From an uncultured delta proteobacterium (GTDB lineage Bacteria; Desulfobacterota; BSN033; UBA1163), in contig CAVPSJ010000001.1 in the NCBI GenBank assembly GCA_963708295.1, forward strand, positions 1 to 64,000: a DNA stretch of 64,000 nt, read 5' to 3'. Below the pieces are notes generated by a model. The model saw only the letters and a program-made list of their open reading frames with translations, made no database searches and was not told where the DNA came from. Positions 1-29,267 of the stretch are shown here, in pieces (the stretch's first letter is position 1; the number at the start of each line of letters is the position of its first letter). Both the position numbers and the translations under genes were made by a program.

Positions 1-324
1 AACCAGGGTTTCGAAACCGTATCGGTTGCATGCAAGGTTGGTTCTGTCCCAAAAGAGGAGATTGGTGTCAAGGACAGCGAAAAGGTTTTCATCGGCGAGT
101 ACGAATCTATGTGTAATCCCATTCTCCAGGCAGCGATCGTCAATGATGCCAAGACAGATTTCAATATTTTGTTGGGACTCTGTGTGGGGCACGACTCCCT
201 CTTTTTCAAGTATGCCGAAGCCCCGACAACCGTCCTGGCAGTCAAGGATAGAGCGACTGGCCACAACCCTTTAGGCCCCATCTACTTATCGGGCAACTAC
301 TATTCGTGGCTCAATCAACCTTGA
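1..324 (+). CDS. DUF1847-family putative metal-binding protein (5' end outside window)
   Basis: Frame open from base 1: ...VSVACKVGSVPKEEIG...ESMCNPILQA...GLCVGHDSLF...VKDRATGHNP, motifs typical of DUF1847. Confidence 0.8.
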   Translation, partial: NQGFETVSVACKVGSVPKEEIGVKDSEKVFIGEYESMCNPILQAAIVNDAKTDFNILLGLCVGHDSLFFKYAEAPTTVLAVKDRATGHNPLGPIYLSGNYYSWLNQP

Positions 325-350
325 TCTGCCCCTTCCATTGCGAACTCTCC

Positions 351-473
351 CTTTCCGTTGCAAAATATCTGGTCCGGGATCATGGTGAGAGGGTCTGGGT
401 CGAACGCCGGATCGGGAAAGGGTCGACGTTCTATTTCACTCTGCCAAAACGCGGAGAAGGAATGAGTTTTTGA
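351..473 (+). pseudogene. Remnant C-terminus of a sensor histidine kinase (HATPase_c end)
   Basis: Manual translation LSVAKYLVRDHGERVWVERRIGKGSTFYFTLPKRGEGMSF*, resembling GLAIAKHIVEAHGGRIWVES..GKGSTFYFTLP; no start codon or N-terminal part. Confidence 0.7.
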
Positions 474-486
474 GAAAAGCCTTGGG

Positions 487-1155
487 TTAGTATTTCGAGG
501 CTCCTATTTCTTCCATATTTCCTGTGACGGTAAACACCACGCGCTCACAGATATTCGTAGCCCGGTCGGCAGCGCGTTCGAGGTTGTGGGCAACCCATAT
601 GAGGCGTGTGGCACTGTTGATTGTCTTGGGGTTGACCATCATGAAGGTGAGGAGTTCTCGAAAGATCTGGTCGTTAAGATCGTCCACGACACTATCTAAG
701 GTGACGACCTGCATTGCCAATTTCGCATCGCGGGTAAGGAATGACTCGAGGCTTTTCTTGATCATTTCAGTCGTTATTTCCGCCATCCGGGGAATATCAA
801 TCAGCGGTTTCAAGGGAGGTTCATCGCCGATCATAATGACGATCTTTCCAATCCCCTCGGCATAATCGCCGATTCGTTCCAGCTCGATGATGATGTTGAG
901 AGCGGCCAAAATGAGGCGCAGATCACTCGCCACAGGCTGCTGGGTGCTAATCAGTTCAACGCATTTGTCCTCAATACTGAATCGCTGTTTATTAATCTCG
1001 GCATCATCAGCGATGATTTGATGGGCCAGAGTCAGATCCCGTTTTTTCAATGCTTCAATAGCGCGGTCGATCGCTTTCACCACCATGTTTCCCATCGTCA
1101 GGACATCACTCTCGACTTCCCGCAAATGTTGATGAAAAACCGTTCTTATTTCCAT
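487..1155 (-). CDS. phoU: Phosphate signalling protein PhoU
   Basis: QQPVASDLR, ELERIGDYA, LERAADRATNICE motifs. Confidence 0.95.
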   Translation of the reverse strand: MEIRTVFHQHLREVESDVLTMGNMVVKAIDRAIEALKKRDLTLAHQIIADDAEINKQRFSIEDKCVELISTQQPVASDLRLILAALNIIIELERIGDYAEGIGKIVIMIGDEPPLKPLIDIPRMAEITTEMIKKSLESFLTRDAKLAMQVVTLDSVVDDLNDQIFRELLTFMMVNPKTINSATRLIWVAHNLERAADRATNICERVVFTVTGNMEEIGASKY

Positions 1156-10488: not shown

Positions 10489-11058
10489 CTACTGCTCACT
10501 TCGGTCGATGCCACCCCCGCAGTGGGGACACACCATAACGTTTTCGTCGATCACTTCATCGCAATGACTGCACTTCCAGCGGTCAGTTGGAGATAGGTCT
10601 AGGCCGCAGCTATTACATTTGAGGTCGTTCTCTCCCAGCCGGTTGCCACAACCCGGGCAAGACGAGAAGTCGAGATCCTCGACGTGGGGCATTCCCTCGC
10701 CATCGGGAACCTCCGCCGCGAAAACTTTCTCATCGATATCCTTGGCCGAGGGCAAGTCCTCCGGCCGAACGTAGACCGAGAAAGACATACTTGGGGGATC
10801 GGACTGCTCGATTCGGTGAGGAATTCCTGTTTCGGCCAGCTTGTCCTGCAGATGGTGGATCCAATCGACGTCAGCCGTCCGCAGTTCTTTGAGAGAGGAT
10901 ATATCATCCTCCAATATCACCGGTTCAGGAATTTCACCAGGCTCATCTTCGAAGTCGTCTTCGGAAATGAGTGGAATGTTGCAGATGGGGCAGATGGCTG
11001 TGTCCGGGGCGAAACCCACGTTGCACTTTGGACAAAAGACTGAATCAAAATCAGCCAT
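10489..11058 (-). CDS. Acidic multi-zinc-ribbon hypothetical protein
   Basis: Six CxxC pairs (CPKC/CPIC, CPGC/CNSC, CSHC/CPHC). Confidence 0.8.
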   Translation of the reverse strand: MADFDSVFCPKCNVGFAPDTAICPICNIPLISEDDFEDEPGEIPEPVILEDDISSLKELRTADVDWIHHLQDKLAETGIPHRIEQSDPPSMSFSVYVRPEDLPSAKDIDEKVFAAEVPDGEGMPHVEDLDFSSCPGCGNRLGENDLKCNSCGLDLSPTDRWKCSHCDEVIDENVMVCPHCGGGIDRSEQ

Positions 11059-11189: not shown

Positions 11190-11519
11190 TTAAACTCGAA
11201 TATCCAGGGCGATGCTTAGCGCTCTATTAAGTTCTTCAATCTTGTTGAGAGAGAGCGATCCAACAAAGTTGGTTAGAAGCGACTTAGGCAAACTGATAAG
11301 CTCGTCGCAATGAATACTACTGTCGTGCTTCAATCCCTGATCCACGCCAACCAGAACTTGAGTGGAAAGACCGTCATGTGCTGAATAAATCGGGGCACAA
11401 ATAACCGTAGAGAAGCGGGAATCGATAAGGATCTGGCGGCTTACGATAACAAAAACTCTGGATTTTTTGGGATCCTTTGCGGATGGGTTGGCAACACGAT
11501 ACAATTCACCACGTTTCAC
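11190..11519 (-). CDS. mazF: PemK/MazF-family toxin
   Basis: [35 protein letters not shown]; overlaps the upstream antitoxin. Confidence 0.9.
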
Positions 11520-11865: not shown

Positions 11866-13602
11866 CTAAAAATTCCGATATTTGTTTGTGACAGGTAGTC
11901 GCCGGTCTTTGCCAAGGGCCCGGTGGGTGATCTTGACTCCGGGAGGGCTCTGTCTTCGTTTATATTCATTCCGGTCCACCAGCTGAATCACTTCCCTGAT
12001 CATACTTTCCTTGAATCCCATTTTCACTATATCCTGGACTCCTTTATCTTCCTCGACATAAGCTTGAAGAATGGGATCAAGGACAGCGTAGGGGGGGAGG
12101 GAATCCTCATCTTTTTGATTCGGCCTCAATTCCGCGGAAGGCGGTTTACTGAAGGTACGTTTGGGGATGAGCTCCTTTCCTTCTTTCTTATTTCTGAATT
12201 TTGTTAATTCATAAACCAAAGTCTTCGGGACATCTTTCAGGACAGCGTACCCCCCGGCCATGTCTCCGTAGAGGGTACAATACCCCACACTCATCTCACT
12301 CTTATTCCCAGTGGTCAAAACAAGCCATCCAAATTTATTGGACAGGGCCATGAGGATGTTCCCACGGATGCGTGCTTGAACATTTTCTTCTGTCACATCA
12401 GGCTTCAGACCTTTAAAAGACGGGGAGAGGGTGTTCAGGTAGGCTTGAAATACTTCTGTGATTGGAATGGTGAGGAATCGAATGCCGAGGTTCTTTGCCA
12501 GGAGTTTCGCATCCTCCAGGGATTCTTTTGAGGAATATTGAGAGGGCATGGCCACTCCCACCACTCCTTTCTTGCCCAGCGCATCCACAGCAATGGCGGC
12601 GGTCAGGGCAGAGTCAATGCCCCCGCTCAGGCCGATTAAAACCCTTTGAAATCCATTTTTCCGAATATAGTCTCCTGTCCCGACCACCAAGGCGGAATAA
12701 ATTTCAGCAGCGCGATCCAATGGCGCCGAATCCCTTTTGGGAAGGGCAGGTCTTTTTCTCACGGAATGGGTTTGGTTTGGAAGATGAATCTTCATCAACT
12801 CTTTTTGCTCTTCGGACAGCTTCTCTCTTCTGATTCGGGGATCATGAAGCCGCATTCGAAAAACTGCCTCCATATCGAGGTCCGCCAGGATCAAGTCCTC
12901 CTCGAACTGTTTTCCTCGAGCGATCAATTTTCCGGTTTGATCGAAGATCAAGCTTCCTCCGTCGAAGACCAGTTCATCCTGGCCTCCGACGAGGTTGCAG
13001 TAGGCGACGATGGCCACGTTGTCCGAAGCCCTGGTCGAAATCATCTTCTCTCGAAATTCGGTTTTTCCGGCGTGGTAGGGTGAAGAGGAGATGTTGACGA
13101 TCAATTCTGCTCCTCCGTAAAGGGCCTGGGTCCGGATCGGATCTCCGGGATACCAGAGGTCTTCACAGATGCTCGGCCCGATCGGTGTCGACTTGAGAGT
13201 AAAGATAAAATTTTCCTTTCCCGGCTGAAAATATCGGTCCTCATCAAAGACCCCGTAGTTGGGAAGAAAGGTTTTGGAGTAAGTCTTGATTCGTTTTCCA
13301 TTGTGGAGGAGAGCGGCTGAGTTAAAGATGTCTCCGTCCTTGTCAACAAAGCCCACGAGGGCAGTGATCGAAGAAGTGGCCCGGGCAATCCTGTCGACGG
13401 CCTTTAGATTGGCCTCGATGAACTTCGGCATGAACAAAAGGTCTTCGGGCGGATAGCCGGTGACAGCCATTTCCGGGAAAGCCAGCAGGTCTGCACCCAT
13501 CTTCTTTCCCTTGGCGATGTAATCGAGAATCTTTTTCGTATTTCCTTCGATGTCACCGACGGTGGTGTTGATCTGGCAGAGTCCGATTCTAAGTGTTCGC
13601 AT
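11866..13602 (-). CDS. nadE: Glutamine-dependent NAD+ synthetase
   Basis: Nitrilase domain (FPE, K..LPNYGVFDE, ICEDLW) plus GLSGGIDS, TGNKSE, PSAELRP. Confidence 0.95.
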   Translation of the reverse strand: MRTLRIGLCQINTTVGDIEGNTKKILDYIAKGKKMGADLLAFPEMAVTGYPPEDLLFMPKFIEANLKAVDRIARATSSITALVGFVDKDGDIFNSAALLHNGKRIKTYSKTFLPNYGVFDEDRYFQPGKENFIFTLKSTPIGPSICEDLWYPGDPIRTQALYGGAELIVNISSSPYHAGKTEFREKMISTRASDNVAIVAYCNLVGGQDELVFDGGSLIFDQTGKLIARGKQFEEDLILADLDMEAVFRMRLHDPRIRREKLSEEQKELMKIHLPNQTHSVRKRPALPKRDSAPLDRAAEIYSALVVGTGDYIRKNGFQRVLIGLSGGIDSALTAAIAVDALGKKGVVGVAMPSQYSSKESLEDAKLLAKNLGIRFLTIPITEVFQAYLNTLSPSFKGLKPDVTEENVQARIRGNILMALSNKFGWLVLTTGNKSEMSVGYCTLYGDMAGGYAVLKDVPKTLVYELTKFRNKKEGKELIPKRTFSKPPSAELRPNQKDEDSLPPYAVLDPILQAYVEEDKGVQDIVKMGFKESMIREVIQLVDRNEYKRRQSPPGVKITHRALGKDRRLPVTNKYRNF

Positions 13603-13618
13603 GTCTCACCCCCAAAAG

Positions 13619-13759
13619 AAGCTCAAAGCTCAAAGCTCGAAGTTCAGAGCCAATCAAGGCTCAGAAGCTCAAGAGCTCAAAGCTTTAACATCTTATCGCT
13701 TAGACTCGAAAACATCAAAATCAACAGCGCCGACCCCTTGAGCTTTCAACTTTCAGCTC
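13619..13759. repeat. Heptamer-repeat inverted element (AAGCTCA)n...(TTGAGCT)n
   Basis: Tandem AAGCTCA/AAGCTCG/AAGTTCA left arm; TTGAGCT-TTCAACT-TTCAGCT right arm. Confidence 0.75.
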
Positions 13760-15196
13760 TTATTCTTCTTCCGAAACCAGCACTTCTTTCTTAATGTTAT
13801 ACTTCTCCATTTTGCCGCGCAGGGTGCTTCGATGAATTCCCAGCAGCGTCGCGGCCTTGAGCTGATTCCCTTTGGTTTTCTGAAGGGCACGGAGAATCAG
13901 TCCTCTTTCCAGATTCGAGATCATGTCGAGATCCTGTGAGGCCGCAGGGGCATTTGAGAGTTCTTCGAACAGCGCGTCGAGGAGGTCCTCCACATTCTTC
14001 TTGCTCAATTCCTCCTCGGCTTCTCGCTTCTCCCACCCTTTTTCGAAAAAGAGTTGATCCTCAAGGATCCATTCCCCCTGGCAGAGCACCCTGGCCCTTT
14101 TCAGGACATTCTCCAGTTGACGGACATTTCCGGGCCATTCATAGGAGTTAATCTTCTCCATCGCTGACGGAGTGATCCCCACCGTTCCCCTCTTCAATTC
14201 TCGGTCGAATTTTTTTAAGAAATAGGAAACCAGGTCCGGAATGTCTTCTTTCCGTTCTCTCAAGGGCGGAATGGTGATCGAGACCACATTGAGTCTGTAA
14301 TAGAGGTCTTCCCTGAACTTTCCGCTTGAAATCGCCTCCTCCAAATTTTTATTGGTGGCGACGATAAACCGGATGTCCACCTTGATCGTTTCCGTTCCCC
14401 CGAGCCTCTCAAAACGCTTCTCCTGGAGGACCCTCAGTAATTTGGCCTGGGTGGAGAGGGACATGTCACCGATCTCATCCAGAAAGATCGTTCCCCCCTG
14501 GCACTGTTCGAGCTTGCCGATTCGGCGAGAGATCGCTCCGGTGAATGCTCCTTTCTCATGGCCGAAGAGCTCGCTTTCAAGAAGGGTGTCCGGAATGGCC
14601 GCACAATTGACCGGAAGGAAAGGCTGATGGGAACGGAGACTGTGATGATAGATCGCCCGGGCGATCAGTTCCTTGCCCGTTCCGCTTTCTCCCCTGAGGA
14701 GGACCGTGACGTCGCTCGGGGCGACCTGGCCGATCATTTTGTAGATCTCCTGCATCCTGGGAGAGGATCCGACAATCCGTTCCTCTTCTCCCTCGGACAC
14801 GGCCAGGGGAGCGTAAGTGACTTCCTCTTTGATCAGTTTTCGCAGGGCGAGGGCTTTTTCAACCAGCCTTTTCATCTGCGGAATGGGGAACGGTTTCAGG
14901 ATATAGTCATAAGCCCCGTACTTCATGGCTTCGATGGCCGTTTCGGTCGTCCCGTAAGCCGTCATGATGATCACGAGGGACTTGGGGTCGATGAGTTTGA
15001 TCTCCTTCAGCACTTCGATTCCGCTTCGACCCGGCATCTTGATATCCATGATGATCAGGTCAGGCGAGCTTTCCCTGACCCGATCCAATGCCTCCGTGCC
15101 ATTTTGAGCCGTGAGGATCGCGTATTTTTCCTCCATCATCCTTTTCAGAGAATATCGGATCGATTTGTCATCGTCGACGATCAGAATGGTCTGCAT
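13760..15196 (-). CDS. Sigma-54-dependent response regulator (NtrC family)
   Basis: Receiver [35 protein letters not shown], Fis HTH; start moved to MQTIL. Confidence 0.95.
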
Positions 15197-15206
15197 CTTC
15201 TTCCTT

Positions 15207-16919
15207 TCATGAAACAGGGAGCCAAACCGTAAAAAGAGTTCCTTTCCCGGGTGCGCTCTCCACCTCGATCTTTCCGTCGTGCTGGTCGATGATCCGATGG
15301 GTAATGGAGAGGCCCAGGCCAATTCCTCCTTCCTTCGTAGAGAAGAAAGGGTCGAAGAGTTTATCGATGTCTTCACCGGGGATACCCACGCCGGAGTCCT
15401 GGATGGAGAGCTTCATCCATCGATCGTCCTCTGGAAGCCGCCCCTTCAACGACAGGTGGCCACCCTTCGGCATCGCCTGGACGGCGTTCAATAGAAGGTT
15501 GAGGATGGCCTGTTTCATCTGTTCGCGGTCCATCAAAATGAGGGGGAGAGGTTGAAATTCCTTTCGAACTTCGATCCGCTGTTTCTCGATTTGAGGCCTG
15601 AGCAATTGAAGGGTTTCTTCGATAATGGAGAGGACCTCCGCTTTCTCTAAGCGAGGGGGAGCCGGCTTGGCGAATCGGAGAAACTGATCGACGATTTCAT
15701 TGATCCGATTGATTTCTTCCGCGATGACCTTGAGGTCCTCCCGATGGGAGTTTCCAGCCGGATAATTTCCAGTCAGAGAATGGATCAGGATGTTGATGCT
15801 GGTCAATGGATTTCGAATCTCGTGGGCAATGCCTGCAGCCAACTGCCCCAAAGCGGCTAACTTATCGGATCGAACCAGCTGGGCTTCCGTTTTTCTCAAA
15901 TCGGCGGTCGTTTTTTGAATCTTTTCTTCCATCTGCAGGCTGAAGGCTTTGAGTTCCTGGTACATGAAGGCATTGTGAATGGCCAGGCCGGCCTGTTGGG
16001 CGTAAACCATCACCGATTCGAGGGCCTCCTTCGTAATGTTTTTGCTGGGCTCAACGAAGTCTGCGGCAATAGCTCCCAAGGCCTTTTCCTTAACCAGAAG
16101 AGGAACCACCACCAGGGAGTGAAGATTGAATTTCTCTTTCAGGACGGGGTTGACTCTTGGGTCTTTGCCGGCATCGGGAATCACGAAAGGCTGTTTCTCG
16201 AAAATCGACCGGGCAACGACACTCTCCTCCGGATCTAAGCGCAGCGTGATTCCCTTGATTCTTTCCTCATCGATTCCTACCGCCATTTTGCATTCAAGAG
16301 CATTCCTCGTTTGATTGACCAGGTAGAGACGGGCTCGGTCGAATCCGATATTTTTGGTCACTCCTTCCAAGACCAGTCTGAGAATCTCATCAATATCAAG
16401 GGTCTCCATCAGGCCGGATTTCTCAATGCAGACGGCTGCCTGATTGGCCACTGTCGAGAGCATCTCCTCTTCGTTTTTCGAAAAGGAATGGGGGTACGAC
16501 GTGTAGCAGTTGATCACACCGATGACCCTGTCCTTAATACACATGGGGACACTGAGCATCGAAACCAATCCTTCCTTTTTGGCCAGATCTTTTTCTTTAT
16601 ACAGAGGGTCTTTGAGGACGTTGAGAATGGCGATCGGCTGATTACGAAGAGCGACATGGCCCACCACTCCCTCTCCCAGGGCGAGGCTTCGCTCTTTCAG
16701 ATATTCTTCGCTGATGCTCTGGGTCGCCTTCAACTTCAGCCTGTGGTCTTTCTCATCCAGAATCCAAAGAGAACAGATCTTCGAGTCCATCAAATTAGCG
16801 GTCACGGTTACCATCAACCGCAGGACGTCTTCAAGATAGAGGCCGGAGGCGATGGCTTTGCTGATCTCCAGTAAAGCATTGATCTCTTTGGATTCCGGGT
16901 TTTTCTGCCCTTTGATCAA
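15207..16919 (-). CDS. Cytoplasmic GAF-GAF sensor histidine kinase
   Basis: Two GAF domains; AHEIRNPL H-box, NLLLNAVQA, DSGVG, FDPFFSTK, GIGLGL; no TM segments. Confidence 0.92.
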   Translation of the reverse strand: MIKGQKNPESKEINALLEISKAIASGLYLEDVLRLMVTVTANLMDSKICSLWILDEKDHRLKLKATQSISEEYLKERSLALGEGVVGHVALRNQPIAILNVLKDPLYKEKDLAKKEGLVSMLSVPMCIKDRVIGVINCYTSYPHSFSKNEEEMLSTVANQAAVCIEKSGLMETLDIDEILRLVLEGVTKNIGFDRARLYLVNQTRNALECKMAVGIDEERIKGITLRLDPEESVVARSIFEKQPFVIPDAGKDPRVNPVLKEKFNLHSLVVVPLLVKEKALGAIAADFVEPSKNITKEALESVMVYAQQAGLAIHNAFMYQELKAFSLQMEEKIQKTTADLRKTEAQLVRSDKLAALGQLAAGIAHEIRNPLTSINILIHSLTGNYPAGNSHREDLKVIAEEINRINEIVDQFLRFAKPAPPRLEKAEVLSIIEETLQLLRPQIEKQRIEVRKEFQPLPLILMDREQMKQAILNLLLNAVQAMPKGGHLSLKGRLPEDDRWMKLSIQDSGVGIPGEDIDKLFDPFFSTKEGGIGLGLSITHRIIDQHDGKIEVESAPGKGTLFTVWLPVS

Positions 16920-16972
16920 AGGGGCCTCCTATTTTTTTCTATCATAAACGAAATCCCCGATTTTTCAAAATG

Positions 16973-17008
16973 AAAAAGGGGATACCGGTATCCTGCGATA
17001 TCCCCTTT
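16973..17008 (-). terminator. Intrinsic terminator after gdhA
   Basis: Minus strand AAGGGGATA...TATCCCC-TTTTT. Confidence 0.6.
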
Positions 17009-17046
17009 CGAATCAAAGATTTTGAATTTTAAGCTTCTTTCTTATC

Positions 17047-18294
17047 TTAGACCCAACCCCGCAGCTTGCAGGCTTCCGCTACCCTTGCCACGGAAACCAA
17101 ATAGGCGGCCTGCCGCATGTTGACCTTCTCCTTTAAATACATCTGGTAGACTCCGTGAAAGGCGCGGGTCATTTTCTGGTCGAGCCTCTCGTGAACTTCT
17201 TGCAGGGGCCAGTAAAAATTGTACGTGTTTTGAACTTGCTCAAAATAGGATACGGTCACCCCCCCTGCGTTGGCGAGGAAATCAGGGATCACGAAGACCT
17301 TGTTCTGATACAGGATGTCATCCGCTTCCGGGGTTGTTGGTCCGTTGGCCAGCTCGCAAGAAATCTTGCACCGGATTCGATCTGCGTTTGCCGCGGTGAT
17401 CACATTTTCAAGGGCCGCCGGGAAAAGAACGGTGACCTCCAGCTCCAGGAGTTCTTCGTTGCTGATGTTCTCGGCTCCCGGGAATTTCTGGAGACTTCCG
17501 GTTTTGAGCTTGTAATCCACCACCTGCTTCGGATCTAACCCCTTTGCGTTGTAGATCCCTCCCTGGGAGTCCGAAGCGGCAATCAGTTTAAGTCCAAGAA
17601 TCTCGCTGCCCAAAAGAGCTGCGTATTGACCGGCGTTTCCAAAGCCCTGGACCGCCATGGGTTTGTCCCGGAGATCGATGTTCAGTAATTTGGCCGCTTC
17701 ACGCATCACATAGACGCCGCCCCGCGCCGTAGAATCTCCTCGTCCCTCCGATCCTCCGAGGGGAATCGGCTTCCCCGTGATGACACCGGGATGATGATGT
17801 CCGACGATCGTCTCATACTCGTCCATCATCCAGGCCATAATCTGAGGGGTTGTATAGACATCCGGAGCGGGCACGTCTTTCGAAACCCCTAGCGTCGAGG
17901 CGATGGCCCTCATATGAGCGCGAGCCAAACGCTGCTTCTCGCCCTCCGACATCCATTTCGGATTGCAGGTGATGCCTCCCTTTCCTCCTCCCAGGGGGAT
18001 ATCCACCACGGCCGTCTTCCAAGTCATCCAGGCAGCCAGGGCGCGGACGGTATCGATGGTCTCTTCCGGATGCCATCGGATGCCGCCCTTGGCTGGCCCC
18101 CGGGCCGTATTATACTGAATCCGATACCCATGGAATATTTGAACTTTTCCGTCATCCATTTGGACAGGTAGCGTTACCCGCAGCTCTTGTTGAGGCCACC
18201 GAAGCAGATCATGGGTGGCTAGGTCCAAACCTAGTCTGTCCGCCGCAACATCCAGTTGCGCCTGTGCAATCTTGAAGGGATTCAACTCTGCCAT
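17047..18294 (-). CDS. gdhA: Glutamate dehydrogenase (Glu/Leu/Phe/Val family)
   Basis: GPAKGGIR, GGGKGG, DVPAPD, QGFGNAG, ANGPTT, ANAGGV. Confidence 0.93.
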   Translation of the reverse strand: MAELNPFKIAQAQLDVAADRLGLDLATHDLLRWPQQELRVTLPVQMDDGKVQIFHGYRIQYNTARGPAKGGIRWHPEETIDTVRALAAWMTWKTAVVDIPLGGGKGGITCNPKWMSEGEKQRLARAHMRAIASTLGVSKDVPAPDVYTTPQIMAWMMDEYETIVGHHHPGVITGKPIPLGGSEGRGDSTARGGVYVMREAAKLLNIDLRDKPMAVQGFGNAGQYAALLGSEILGLKLIAASDSQGGIYNAKGLDPKQVVDYKLKTGSLQKFPGAENISNEELLELEVTVLFPAALENVITAANADRIRCKISCELANGPTTPEADDILYQNKVFVIPDFLANAGGVTVSYFEQVQNTYNFYWPLQEVHERLDQKMTRAFHGVYQMYLKEKVNMRQAAYLVSVARVAEACKLRGWV

Positions 18295-18320
18295 GTCTTG
18301 TTCTCCTTTTCTGAGATGAG

Positions 18321-18380
18321 TAATAAAAAAAGGGCGCCAAATTTCTTTGACGCCCTCGTCTTCAATACGGCATTGTATTG
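18321..18380 (-). promoter_or_regulatory. ANTAR-binding twin-hairpin antitermination switch with overlapping intrinsic terminator
   Basis: Minus strand CAATAC-AATGCC-GTATTG, aa, GAC-GAGGGC-GTC; hairpin 2 overlaps terminator AGGGCGTCAAA-gaaa-TTTGGCGCCCT-T run; ANTAR gene adjacent. Confidence 0.85.
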
Positions 18381-18390
18381 GTTAACGGCC

Positions 18391-18418
18391 ATTATATGAT
18401 ATTTTGAATTTTTGTCAA
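18391..18418 (-). promoter_or_regulatory. Sigma-70 promoter of gdhA
   Basis: TTGACA-16-TATAAT just upstream of the ANTAR hairpins. Confidence 0.8.
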
Positions 18419-18445
18419 GAAAATAATATTTCCTAAAACAGGTCA

Positions 18446-19147
18446 CTATCTCATTCTGTCTGTAAGGAGAATCGCCTCCGAGATCTCCCTCATCGTTTTC
18501 CGACTGTTCATGCTCGCCTTTCGAATCCTCCTGAACGCCTCTTCTTCATTCAGAGCATGTTGTTTCATCAATATCCCTTTGGCCCTTTCCACCAGTTTTC
18601 GAGTTTCCAACTCCTCCTGGATCACCTTGGTCTTTACCATTAATTCGGTATTCTCAATACAGATCGCCGCCTGGTTGGCGACGGAGGTGAGGACGGCTCT
18701 CTCCGTCTCACTAAATTCATGAGGATAGGAAGTGTAGCAATTGATCACCCCGATCACCTTATCTTTGACTGTCAGGGGAACACTGAGCATGGAAACCAAG
18801 CTTTCTTTTTTTGCTAATTCTTTCTCTTTGTAGCGGGGTTCTTTCAAGACATCGAGGATGGCCAAGGGCTTGTTCTGTTGCACTACGAAACCCACGATGC
18901 CCTCTCCCAGTTTTAAAGCCCGTTCCTTGAGGTATTCCTCGCTCATGGTTTGGGTGGCCCTGATTTTTAAAACCTTTTCTTTTTCATCCAAGATCCAGAG
19001 AGAACAGATTTTAGAGTCCATCACATTGGCGGTGACGGTCACAATCAGCTTCAAGATATCATCTAAGTACCGGTCGGAGGAGATGGCCTGGCTGATTTCC
19101 GAGAGAGCCTCAATCTGTTTCTTGGGGGAGGGTTTTTTGTATAACAA
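18446..19147 (-). CDS. GAF-ANTAR RNA-binding antiterminator
   Basis: GAF domain then LETRKLVERAKGILM..LNEEEAFRRIRKASMNSRKTMREISEAI. Confidence 0.93.
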   Translation of the reverse strand: MLYKKPSPKKQIEALSEISQAISSDRYLDDILKLIVTVTANVMDSKICSLWILDEKEKVLKIRATQTMSEEYLKERALKLGEGIVGFVVQQNKPLAILDVLKEPRYKEKELAKKESLVSMLSVPLTVKDKVIGVINCYTSYPHEFSETERAVLTSVANQAAICIENTELMVKTKVIQEELETRKLVERAKGILMKQHALNEEEAFRRIRKASMNSRKTMREISEAILLTDRMR

Positions 19148-19178
19148 CGGCGAACCTTCCTTTCACTATTGCGAAGCC

Positions 19179-19207
19179 AATTTACACAAAAGGTCTAAAG
19201 TTGTCAA
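19179..19207 (-). promoter_or_regulatory. Sigma-70 promoter of the GAF-ANTAR gene
   Basis: TTGACA-17-TAAATT. Confidence 0.65.
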
Positions 19208-19273
19208 CAAGCCGGAAGCGGTCGTGTGCGCAGTGTTTCCGGGCGGCATGTCTCGTCCGCCGTGGCTTTCTTT

Positions 19274-21914
19274 TCAGGGCCTCTTTGTATCCGCCCCATT
19301 TAGAAAGCACACGGCCTGGCGGTGTTGAGGATCGGCCACCACCGTAGCAAAGCCCCCGTCCGTGGTATTGGGAACGTCGATCAAGCGAAGAACCGGTTCG
19401 TATTCGCGGGCGTGAGGGAATAGCTCCAGGAGGATATTCGGCGCTCTTTCAAAGAATTCCGTCTGAAATTCCGTAGCGGCATCGTCCGGGAACACCGGCA
19501 GATAAATAATCTGGGCTTCCACCAAATCCTGGAAAAAGTGCGTTCCATAAGAGACTTCGGGCACATGGCCGGCTTCTTCCAGGGCCACTTCCACCAAGAC
19601 CGCTGCATTATCGATATCGGCGTAAGTCACATTGACTCCTAAATCAATGTTTCCGCTCCCCCATCGTCCTGGTCCCATCATCAAAATCTTAGCATCTTTG
19701 ATTGCCGGGTGGCGATTGATTTGTCCCACCAAACGTCCCAGGGATTTTTTCGCCTCTCGGGCCAGGCGATTGTATCCTTGGGGGTCGATGTAGAGTATGT
19801 AACGGATTTGCTCGACCGAGCCGCCACAGATCATGCGATGGGAGCGAAATAGAATCTGCTGGCGTTCCAGCGAGGTGGGCACCGACACAGCCACCATTGA
19901 ACCGGGGGTAAACAGCGGCCGGCATTGAAGCAAATTGATGCGGACATGTTTGCCGCCGTCGACAGAGGCTGTAAACTCCACGTCCACCGGCTGTCCATAG
20001 GCCTCTTCCAGTCTGGCCAACAGATTCCCCATGACCGGAACAAAATCTGTTCGTAGAATCAGGTTGTTAAAAGTGAGCACCCATTGATCCGCGCTTCCGC
20101 CCACCTTCCCGGAGACGGGGTCGTAAGGGTAATTGTCGCGCATGACCGAAACGAACATGGAAAGATGAGGATACTCATCTTTCGCCAATATGTCGGTCAA
20201 GAAGTGGGTCTCGAACTGGTTTGTCTCCAGGTTGAGCACATCCACCTGATGCTGAGAATACTTGGATACTTTCACCCCTACTTCCGGGCGCAGCTGGGGA
20301 TGGCTAATGGCGATCATGCGAGGGTAATCCGCACCGACCCGGTCCACCGCCCTTGTGCCCAGCCCAAAAACGAGGCGGGTGACGCCTTGCCGGGAATCGA
20401 TGCGGTCATTCCAGGCATAGAGGTTGCGCGAGAAGGCGACTCCGGCCAGCGTCGGGAAAGAAATACTGCCGGTACGGCATGCCCGAAACGCGCTGCACCA
20501 AAATCGCCATTTGTTCGTCGTTTGCGCCCAGACCACGCTTACTGCGATAACACAGGGCATCGGGGTTGAGAGCACTGGCGTACACCAACTTCACCGCACG
20601 CATGAAGTCATCCAGGCGGGCCTCGGGATTTCCCTGGTTCGTACAAAATATACTGCGATATTTTCCGGCAAAGGAATTGCCAAAACTGTCTTCCAGCAAA
20701 CTACTGGAGCGTACGATGATGGGTGCTTGTCCGTAGTAGTCCAGCATGGCACGAAACTGTTCTCGGATGGTTGACGAGAAACGACCCGCCAAAAAACGCT
20801 CCTCAATCTCTTGAAATTCATCGGGAGAAGTGGCGGAATCACAGGTCAGTCGCAATCGGAGCCTAAAAAGGTCGTTGTTGACCAGAAAGGTGAAAAAGAC
20901 ATCCGAGCCGATGTAAAAAGAGTCGTGGTCGTCGAGCCGCTCTTTGAAGTCAATCCCCGTCTCTTCCTTTTTCGCCAGCAGGATACGCTGCGCGAGCAAC
21001 ATGCCGGCGGCTTTTCCCCCGATGCGTCCGGCCCCGATCAAGCGCTTTCGAATCGCAAACAGATCTTCCAGGGTAAAATACCGATCCGCGAGCCGGTTAA
21101 AGACGGGATGATGTCCGATGAGCATTCGACCCAATTCCTGTTTCAAAGCCAACTGTTCGGGATCCCCTTCGTCAAAGCCGGATTGGGTTTTGCTGTAGTC
21201 GGAAAGCTTTTGGTAGACGCTTTCCCAGGGAGCCAGGGGTTGCGTCGTTTCGAGCAAGGGGGATTGCCGGGCTGAGGCCAATACTTCTGCGGCTTCGCGA
21301 CTTTGCGAAAGCGGGTGCCAGTTTTCTCCGGCGACGAGATGGGGCAAGAACATCTGTGGCGAATAACGATCCCACACCTTGATGGGGTGGATATGCATTT
21401 GGTCTTTGGCGTGATACACGTCCACAAGGATTTGCGTCGTATCCCGAATGCGGGCCACGGCGTAGTGGGCATGCTGGCCGCGCGTCAAGGCAAAATAGGC
21501 GACCGTATTCAACTCAAATAGAAAAGGGCAGGTGATCTGGAAGAAGTTGGCGAGCGATTCGTCGGTCGCCCACTCCACCACCAACGCTGACAGGTTGTCA
21601 AAGACGTACATGACCTCGGGGCCGTGCGCTTCAATAAGGAGGTGGACTTCGCGCGTAAAATAATCAAAGCCCAGGCTGGGGTCCAGCTCAATCATTTCCA
21701 ACCCCGGGTGAGAAGCCAACACGGGTGGGTGGGATGCAAAACGCAAATAGACCAGCCGCCGCCGGGCGGCAAGAGCAGCCTCGGCAAACGGCACAGCAAA
21801 GTGACGGTAATCCTCGAGGCGATCAACCTGCCAGACGACATTGTCGCCTAAACGGATTCCTTGTAAAACTTCGTCCAGGGCTTTAATCCCACTGGGAATC
21901 TCAGAAGTTTTCAT
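19274..21914 (-). CDS. PEP synthase/PPDK ATP-grasp-domain protein with degenerate KaiC/RecA-like N-terminus; one frameshift near 20455
   Basis: SGIKALDEVLQG; IGGKAAG, RSSSLLED..AGKY, MAILVQ, DVEF, LLQCRP; C-terminal GPGRWGS..SYGTHFF; the two ORFs join at YFFP/LAGVAFS. Confidence 0.85.
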
Positions 21915-24839: not shown

Positions 24840-26119
<1,280 letters not shown>

Positions 26120-28239: not shown

Positions 28240-29267
28240 ATGCGCGTCGCGATGTATTACAACAACAGGGATGTGAGGCTGGAAGAGATTCCGATACCTC
28301 AGATCGGCCCCGGTGAGTTATTGGTCAAGGTGGTGGCCAGCGGCATCTGCGGCAGCGATGTCATGGAATGGTATCGGATTAAAAAGGCTCCCCGGGTGCT
28401 CGGTCATGAGATCACAGGGGAGATCGTTGAGGTCGGCAAAGGGGTGGATCGCTACAAAAAGGGCGATCGCGTCTTTGTTTCTCATCATGTTCCCTGTAAC
28501 ACCTGTCCATACTGTCTGAACGGTGATCACACTCTTTGCGATACGTTACGGACGACCAATTTCGATCCGGGAGGTTTCTGCCGAATATCTCCGTGTTCCC
28601 AGGATCAACGTGGATCGGGGTGTTTTTGTGTTGCCCGGGGAGATCTCTTTTGAAGACCGGCGTCTTTATCGAGCCGTTGGCCTGTGTCCTTCGCGGGCAG
28701 CGATTGGCAAGACTGGAACCCGGGAAGACCGTTTTTGTTATCGGAAGCGGAATCTCAGGAGTTCTTCATATTGCTCTGGCCCGCGCGTCAGGGGCAGGAC
28801 GGATCATTGCCTCGGATATCAGCGAATACCGTCTCAGGACGGCGAAACAATCCGGTGCGGACGAAGCGCTCTTTGCCAAGGACGTCCGCACTTCAAAGAT
28901 TCGAGAAATCAATCAGGGGCGATTGGCTGATCTGGTCATCGTTTGTGCTGGAAGCCCTTCAGCGTACAAACAAGCGCTTGAGACCGTCGACAGGGGAGGA
29001 ACGATTTTATGTTTTGCTCCTTTGGAGCCGGGTGTTGATCTTGTTCTTCCTTTCTTTGAGTTTTGGAATGATGGAATGACCCTTTTATCCACTTACGGGG
29101 GGAGTCCTTTTGACATTTCAACAGCCGTCGAGCTGATAAGAGCCCAGCGTCTTCCTCTTCAGAAAATGATCACCCACCGGCTTCCGCTGGCAGAGACAGG
29201 GGTTGGATTTCAAATGGTGACGGATGCCAAGGACTCTATCAAAGTGATCATTGAACCTCACCGGTGA
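28240..29267 (+). CDS. Zinc-dependent dehydrogenase (sorbitol/threonine dehydrogenase-like), frameshifted
   Basis: GICGSD, GHE, CNTCPYC..C, IEPLAC, GSGISG across two to three frames. Confidence 0.85.

Follow-up and report, generated by a model that had tools for sequence, protein, structure and literature searches.

We analysed the first 64,000 nucleotides of contig CAVPSJ010000001.1 (forward strand; assembly GCA_963708295.1, here G000, 91% complete) from an uncultured delta proteobacterium of sediment (Desulfobacterota; BSN033; UBA1163), and refer to this whole stretch as the window. Using open reading frame (ORF) and domain searches, six co-oriented genes were placed on its minus strand at 11866-21914, encoding a dikinase-like protein, a GAF-ANTAR antiterminator, glutamate dehydrogenase (GDH; gdhA), a twin-GAF histidine kinase, a sigma-54 response regulator and glutamine-dependent NAD+ synthetase (NadE) (Table 1). 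This confirms the six genes and the domains named in an initial annotation made from the letters alone, although the dikinase is not an intact ORF in the window, as it is broken near 20454 into frames of 502 and 433 amino acids.

Table 1. Features of the locus in the window, with the loci of one related protein (L numbers) in the last row
Feature	Position	Strand	Remarks
Dikinase-like gene	19274..21914	-	Predicted KaiC/RecA-fold N-domain without Walker A, PPDK_N ATP-grasp, C-terminal domain with invariant His; split near 20454
Sigma-70-like promoter match (10/12) of GAF-ANTAR gene	19179..19207	-	Consensus match only
GAF-ANTAR one-component antiterminator, 233 aa	18446..19147	-	Domain search
gdhA sigma-70 promoter match (12/12)	18391..18418	-	Consensus match; relatives' leaders preceded at similar spacing
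ANTAR-type leader RNA of gdhA	18323..18383	-	P1 about 18380-18363, P2 about 18360-18349
GDH, 415 aa	17047..18294	-	Best model GdhA_Arch, below its cut-off
Terminator-like hairpin 3' of gdhA	16974..17009	-	Followed by promoter-like match 16968-16941
Twin-GAF histidine kinase, 570 aa	15207..16919	-	GAF-GAF-HisKA-HATPase; H, N and G boxes present
Sigma-54 response regulator	13760..15196	-	Receiver, AAA+ (GAFTGA motif) and HTH_8 domains; scores highest with NtrC TIGR01818, under its cut-off
Glutamine-dependent NAD+ synthetase NadE	11866..13602	-	NF010588 above cut-off
435-aa KaiC-like/XRE/cupin protein	L028:10436-11743, L035:17310-18617, L054:13253-14560		Recurrent in nitrogen clusters beside nuoEFG-like genes

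As judged from sequence, the locus is probably read as several transcription units rather than as one operon, because promoter-like sites lie 5' of the GAF-ANTAR gene, gdhA and the kinase gene and a terminator-like hairpin lies 3' of gdhA. No leader was found upstream of nadE, whose product contains CN-hydrolase and NAD synthase domains and scores 746 bits with NF010588 (cut-off 479), and Rfam returned nothing at gathering scores within the window. Contigs from one RNA run (X17) cover parts of the locus at 90-99% identity, which says nothing on expression or leader function.

The gdhA leader and the ANTAR regulon

The initial annotation had placed an ANTAR-type RNA switch before gdhA, and our analysis agrees with this, finding a sigma-70 promoter match followed by twin hexaloop hairpins, P1 (loop AAUGCC) and P2 (loop GAGGGC), with P2 overlapping a 12-bp terminator stem (18357-18330) that ends in a U tract. 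The fold of the whole leader has a z of -5.2, and among the 25 matches of a genome-wide twin-hexaloop scan it has the lowest terminator energy. Both loops carry G at position 4 and P1 carries the canonical A at position 1, but P2 carries G there; most relatives have A at position 1 of the P2 loop, and relatives have A or G at position 1, these being the only two bases our search pattern permitted. The ANTAR domain of the GAF-ANTAR protein (PF03861, E 1.8e-21) is the sole one in the G000 assembly, which by elimination makes this protein the cognate partner of the leaders, and orthologues with 84-91% identity are present in 20 of 24 relatives of the same family.

An alignment was built from the window leader and 24 mostly short leaders, drawn from the 33 distinct U-tract leaders that pattern matching gave in the fetched loci. 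The hairpin cores were fixed by the search pattern and their invariance therefore arises by construction, but the terminator stem was not fixed, and across the 25 leaders it displays two-sided changes at 6 of its 12 pairs, a value reached by 0 of 500 shuffles, with kinship inflating the counts. A search of 41 genomes with our leader model (R1) gave 91 matches in 34 of them. By coordinates, 22 of 52 glutamine synthetase (glnA) matches, spread over 20 genomes, have an R1 match upstream, as do 7 of 15 GDH orthologues; the glnA tally leaves out 12 of 64 rows as fragmentary, and the R1 training set contained only one glnA leader. A further 20 matches were fetched, of which nine precede asd-like ORFs (one confirmed as asd), two a glutamate-synthase-like gene, one amtB and one the kinase gene, while the remaining seven are followed by a small ORF of no known family, by one further ORF without an assigned identity, or by no recognisable gene. 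Likewise, the kinase operon has its own leader in G017 and G018. Against this, R1 found no leader in any of the five genomes of family f3, two of which have a full-length GAF-ANTAR protein. None-the-less, it is well supported that the leaders of gdh, the glutamate-synthase-like gene, glnA and asd in relatives form a nitrogen regulon, which upholds the nitrogen control proposed in the initial annotation.

In G000 itself R1 is confident only on the gdhA leader, and a second ANTAR-type leader, before asd (contig C4, about 1028200, minus strand), was found by hand and is an unexpected member of the regulon. Four other genomes (L262-L265) have a sigma-70 promoter and ANTAR leader, followed in three by an ORF of ~100 amino acids with no NCBIfam family. 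In G010 (L038; 95% complete, 2 contigs) the kinase and regulator are present without a close GAF-ANTAR match, yet the leader before glnA persists, and in family f4 a 417-amino acid twin-GAF ANTAR protein is encoded beside NrpR (L052:9355-10608).

Gene modules and the dikinase-GDH pair

We examined the neighbourhood of 25 loci chosen for the kinase, each of 25 kb at most and some cut by contig ends. Of these, 22 have nadE next after the regulator gene, 14 have GAF-ANTAR, and GDH and the dikinase occur in 11 each, while all six genes are found together in only 6, and the six genes cannot be upheld as the single conserved combination of the initial annotation. Either GDH or the glutamate-synthase-like gene is present in 19 loci and the two occupy the same slot behind the same leader, while in family f2 the GAF-ANTAR, glutamate-synthase-like and nadE genes are linked without the kinase. 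The cluster is made up of three modules: GAF-ANTAR with a leader-controlled glutamate-forming gene; kinase, regulator and nadE; and dikinase with GDH. The genes that vary at the locus nearly all belong to nitrogen assimilation.

The glutamate-synthase-like protein of L024:2242-3828 and its relatives has 522 amino acids, matches Glu_synthase only in part, belongs to no NCBIfam family and is often encoded behind tandem duplicated leaders. Within the window, the intergenic region between the regulator and nadE (13602-13760) contains several short degenerate GAGCTTT-like repeats that are variable among strains, and just downstream of nadE are ORFs for a PemK/MazF-like toxin (11190-11519) and a double zinc-ribbon protein (10489-11058).

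The split in the dikinase gene is probably a 1-nt insertion due to assembly error, since relatives encode a single protein of ~880 amino acids, near-identical contigs from runs X2 and X3 are one base shorter at 20453/20454, and purD (24840-26113) and an alcohol dehydrogenase gene (28240-29264) are also frameshifted in the window, which indicates indel errors. The family is large, with all 8000 scored candidates at E <= 1e-20. PF01326 (PPDK_N) is present in 45 of 45 aligned members, in which K301, R402, S421 and H792 are invariant. In the predicted structure (predicted local distance difference test (pLDDT) 85) the N-terminal domain appears to adopt a KaiC/RecA fold (Z about 21), with no Walker A in the aligned stretch, and this domain is exchangeable among members, being either KaiC-like or short. 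A separate 435-amino acid protein carries the same KaiC-like domain (26% identity) fused to an XRE helix-turn-helix and a cupin.

The ATP-grasp of the dikinase resembles those of rifampin phosphotransferase (RPH) and phosphoenolpyruvate (PEP) synthase, and the alignment contains equivalents of the ATP-site Arg and Thr of RPH. In the model H792 is at the start of a helix and the protein ends about 80 residues beyond it. Furthermore, the model aligns with residues -7..866 of rifampin phosphotransferase (5hv3) over 400 residues with Z 19.1, a range that takes in the swivel domain, which spans 767-865 (PMC4844700), and from this modelled fold the His domain is a probable swivel phosphohistidine domain. 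Two results speak against such an assignment, as Pfam found no swivel family in the dikinase and HHalign gave no match between its C-terminal domain and four genome-derived swivel-motif stretches (Prob 0.2). When folded from a single sequence this domain had a pLDDT of 35, and an Atlas feature search with it returned only unnamed or 'putative PEP synthase' clusters. There was also no Pfam match to a pyruvate/PEP-binding barrel in the dikinase, and with its N-terminal fragment every NCBIfam PEP-synthase score was far under the cut-off.

The dikinase is co-inherited with one clade of GDH. The GDH clade of the window (at least 80% identity) is present in 15 of 41 genomes, and in all 15 a dikinase is encoded on the same contig no more than 8 kb away. 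Conversely, 15 of 16 dikinase genomes have that GDH, and only one of the 22 genomes whose GDHs are all more distant has a dikinase; within a single genus, 5 of 14 genomes have both and 9 have neither. Across the phylum, 40 of 58 dikinase matches were tallied, and of these 30 have GDH no further than 5 kb away and 35 have some nitrogen gene. In metagenomes these counts are 32 and 57 of 80 loci, and 14 and 24 of the 32 loci with both flanks of at least 2.5 kb. Two GDH types, about 30% identical, are found beside dikinases, and in Parabacteroides distasonis gdhA adjoins the dikinase gene. A 1996 paper on Bacteroides reportedly described trans-acting genes downstream of gdhA, an unverified lead.

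Modification of GDH by the dikinase, one of the two roles raised in the initial annotation, would fit this co-inheritance together with the precedent of VadK (Rv1127c), a truncated PPDK which, according to the available part of PMC13400623, autophosphorylates on His, is encoded near enzymes it interacts with, and demonstrates that a truncated dikinase can regulate neighbouring enzymes. By this analogy the protein may be a VadK-like regulator of the co-inherited GDH, a tentative reading which we place slightly short of an even chance. Several loci count against it: in the phylum of G283 only 3 of 11 show dikinase-GDH linkage (six related loci there sit behind a gene which we take to be dnaN), the Prevotella dikinase locus has no GDH link, and in 5 of the 40 phylum loci the dikinase is beside glutamate synthase or amtB with no GDH within 5 kb. 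A predicted complex of dikinase residues 292-872 with GDH scored 0.00 and carries no weight for or against.

The dikinase could alternatively be a metabolic enzyme whose phosphate acceptor is a small molecule from glutamate/2-oxoglutarate metabolism, by analogy with RPH-type dikinases and their substrates, with its proximity to GDH and glutamate synthase reflecting a common pathway. The closest folds are indeed small-molecule dikinases, and neighbours so varied, which include the two GDH types but also glutamate synthase, NrpR and amtB without GDH, fit a metabolite link better than a single protein surface. However, no distinct substrate-binding domain is evident in the model, either between the ATP-grasp and His domains or beyond them, the N-terminal domain is variously KaiC-like or short, and the gene is gained or lost with one GDH clade inside one genus, so that we regard a small-molecule kinase as unlikely and favour the VadK-like regulator. 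The suggestion in the initial annotation that the dikinase makes the ligand of the GAF domains fits poorly, and we discarded it as a general role, as most genomes of the family have GAF-ANTAR and the kinase without the dikinase. We also considered a role as a substitute for glutamine synthetase, which the lack of a glnA match in G000 had suggested, and dropped it, as glnA is present in 38 of 41 genomes, including dikinase carriers and the closest relative.

A sensor domain in two proteins and the sigma-54 arm

The antiterminator and the kinase had been proposed to have one GAF domain in common, which proved correct for the first kinase GAF (70% identity over 161 amino acids) and not for the second (28%). 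Of 86 columns conserved among ANTAR GAFs, 77 are also conserved in kinase GAF1. A tree of these GAFs was computed from 49 rows, after removal of 10 that were long or duplicates and thinning at 21 close loci; in it, the kinase GAF1 sequences group as a single clade (100/100) nested inside the group of GAF-ANTAR sequences (98/98). An approximately unbiased (AU) test, however, did not reject monophyly of the GAF-ANTAR sequences (p = 0.29), which leaves the direction of copying unfixed. Ongoing gene conversion between the two was ruled out, as they do not pair by genome. This GAF type occurs in 70 of 251 genomes from the phylum, for the most part in short ORFs of GAF-ANTAR size, while the kinase bearing the close copy is confined to the family of the window.

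The closest solved sequences to this GAF are those of EI-Ntr (3trc, E 4e-16; 3ci6, E 6e-16), the best NCBIfam matches are PtsP and NifA, and an Atlas feature search returned generic GAF clusters only. As the nearest solved GAFs are those of EI-Ntr, reported to bind glutamine in the portion of PMC4848567 available, a nitrogen metabolite is the best guess for the ligand, and we lean towards glutamine (inhibitory) or 2-oxoglutarate as the ligand common to both GAFs, which presumably sense the same molecule. The identity to EI-Ntr of only about 30%, by eye, and the NLH1 and phosphodiesterase GAFs that score close behind both weaken this choice.

The kinase has no PAS domain and scores 130.9 bits with the NR(II) model (cut-off 240), and the regulator scores 498.6 bits with TIGR01818 (NtrC; cut-off 558.6), below the cut-off although this is its best model. 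In relatives, a tandem site lies 117-137 bp 5' of the conserved sigma-54 promoter at which the GATase-amtB-glnK-glnD operon begins, and a matrix made from 11 such GATase/amtB sites recovers further sites about 114 bp 5' of glnA sigma-54 promoters. This site-plus-promoter pattern occurs in 21 of the 24 genomes of the family and in none of the 16 others (reversed control 0), and the regulator C-terminus is similarly distributed, in 22 of 24 and 0 of 16. In 10 genomes the ANTAR leader begins 9-13 bases past the sigma-54 promoter and is followed by glnA, and with enhancer-like site, promoter and leader stacked in this way both control layers converge on one glnA transcript. Together with the GAF columns common to both proteins, this lends comparative support to the earlier proposal that the RNA and sigma-54 levels are controlled in parallel. 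The position of the regulator gene and its co-distribution with the sites lead us to infer that the regulator is an activator acting at the tandem sites.

Three observations oppose this putative pairing of regulator and site. Both are limited to one family, in which the pattern was trained, and kinship confounds their co-distribution; G000 has many other sigma-54 activators; and no tandem site, glutamine synthetase or true glutamate synthase was found in G000. These absences are probably an assembly gap, as glnA is present in each of the 14 genus mates and in the closest relative. G000 also has no glnD match, though amtB-glnK (C19) and the glutamine-dependent NadE are present, and a second nitrogen cluster is probably missing. 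An exact 16-mer from one amtB sigma-54 promoter matched mostly at unrelated genes.

It could be, then, that the kinase-regulator pair does not activate the glnA and amtB promoters at all, the GAF having drifted to another ligand and the pair to another target. In addition to the abundance of sigma-54 activators and the confounding kinship, this is consistent with the separate branch (0.28) of kinase GAF1 and its 4 conserved-but-different columns, and with no sigma-54 promoter match in the five intergenic regions of the locus. The retention of 77 of 86 conserved columns speaks against such drift, as does the company these genes keep: the pair is encoded within clusters holding amtB and/or glnA in G017, G018, G023 and G121, has its own leader in two genomes, and has related pairs in other families whose neighbours include glutamate synthase and GAF-ANTAR genes. 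We therefore consider a different target improbable and retain the regulator as putative activator of these promoters.

Proposed circuit and comparison with known systems

We think it probable that the locus is a control cluster for nitrogen assimilation, specific to the lineage and composed of three modules, that operates as follows. GAF-ANTAR would sense nitrogen status via its EI-Ntr-like GAF and, when active, bind the twin hexaloops of the leaders and block the terminator so that gdhA is transcribed, with binding assumed from the known ANTAR mechanism; in relatives the same antitermination would act at the leaders of the glutamate-synthase-like gene, glnA and asd, and in some cases at that of the kinase operon. 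The kinase, carrying an old duplicate of that GAF, would phosphorylate the sigma-54 regulator, which would activate the GATase-amtB-glnK-glnD and glnA promoters through the tandem upstream site, such that glnA would need initiation plus antitermination. The dikinase may autophosphorylate its conserved His from ATP, and NadE would be a long-standing, glutamine-consuming passenger. That the genes are instead chance neighbours at an insertion hot spot beside pur genes, with the dikinase a dead pseudogene, is highly improbable, because, although gene content at the locus varies widely and the dikinase gene is also frameshifted in G008 and G285, the frameshift positions differ between these and the window, the extra base is absent from near-identical contigs of two runs with purD broken in the same window, the variable genes are nearly all for nitrogen assimilation, and linkage is kept in further lineages.

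The nitrogen regulon is real and coherent, and the dikinase is its most novel and least proven part. A still more ambitious reading, which we judge rather unlikely, is a full PII-independent circuit in which a glutamine/2-oxoglutarate GAF, duplicated onto the antiterminator and an NtrB-like kinase, makes an AND gate on glnA, and widespread PPDK-derived His kinases phosphorylate or bind GDH as a third, post-translational layer, the latter being a so far unrecognised control of GDH in anaerobes of several phyla. Nitrogen sensing in anaerobic Desulfobacterota is poorly mapped beyond Geobacter, and the locus offers a compact set of parts open to testing (an antiterminator of 233 amino acids, an RNA of 56 nt, the paralogous sensor of the kinase and one defined enhancer site), which could yield the first ligand of a GAF-ANTAR protein and a test of one sensor feeding two layers. 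Dikinases of this family routinely carry the label PEP synthase or pyruvate,water dikinase, which would be a misannotation in many genomes if they do regulate GDH; ammonium assimilation would then have a new control point open to testing.

A literature search, with most subscription papers outside its scope, found no description of this gene combination, of the one-component GAF sensor, of its duplicate on the kinase, of gdhA or asd as targets, or of a dikinase-GDH module. The comparisons that follow extend to the portions available of PMC2995071, PMC3369931, PMC7496416 and PMC13400623. VadK and the present dikinase, likened by domain layout alone, both combine ATP-binding and His domains without a pyruvate domain (PMC13400623), but the latter has ~880 amino acids, an extra N-terminal domain, a diverged His domain and a link to GDH. 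PEP synthase, PPDK and rifampin phosphotransferase have the PPDK_N ATP-grasp in common with it, whereas their pyruvate barrel or rifampin domain is absent here. The EI-Ntr (PtsP) GAFs (3trc, 3ci6) are the closest solved relatives of the sensor but are distant (E about 1e-16) and have other outputs, and NtrB/NtrC differs in having a PAS kinase where this locus has twin GAFs and a regulator under the NtrC equivalog cut-off.

The ANTAR systems EutV, NasR and AmiR (PMC3369931, PMC7496416) have, like this locus, two hexaloop hairpins, G4 and a P2 overlapping the terminator, but here the sensor is a GAF and loop position 1 is often G. Predicted ANTAR targets in these papers include glutamate and glutamine synthases, amt and PII; gdhA and asd were not met among the targets in the portions available, although the supplements of PMC3369931 may include gdh. 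According to the 2012 paper, no characterised GAF- or PAS-ANTAR existed at that time (PMC3369931), and in the 2020 paper the characterised one-component examples are PAL and NasR (PMC7496416). The initial annotation overstated its case in calling the system undescribed, as there is a published analogue in Geobacter sulfurreducens, GnfL/GnfM with GnfK/GnfR (PMC2995071). In both, nitrogen genes have tandem upstream sites for a sigma-54 activator, with the activator and its amtB/glnA-type targets putative here, and ANTAR antitermination serves a subset. However, GnfL has a PAS sensor and the Geobacter ANTAR protein is a phosphorylated response regulator, as opposed to the GAF-GAF kinase and the one-component GAF-ANTAR without a receiver described here, and Geobacter gdhA has an RpoN promoter repressed by GnfM, whereas gdhA here has a sigma-70 promoter and an ANTAR leader. 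Two-layer logic (PMC2995071) and ANTAR nitrogen regulons (PMC3369931) are therefore known, and, unlike in the GnfL/GnfK system, the kinase and antiterminator of this locus carry paralogous GAF domains.

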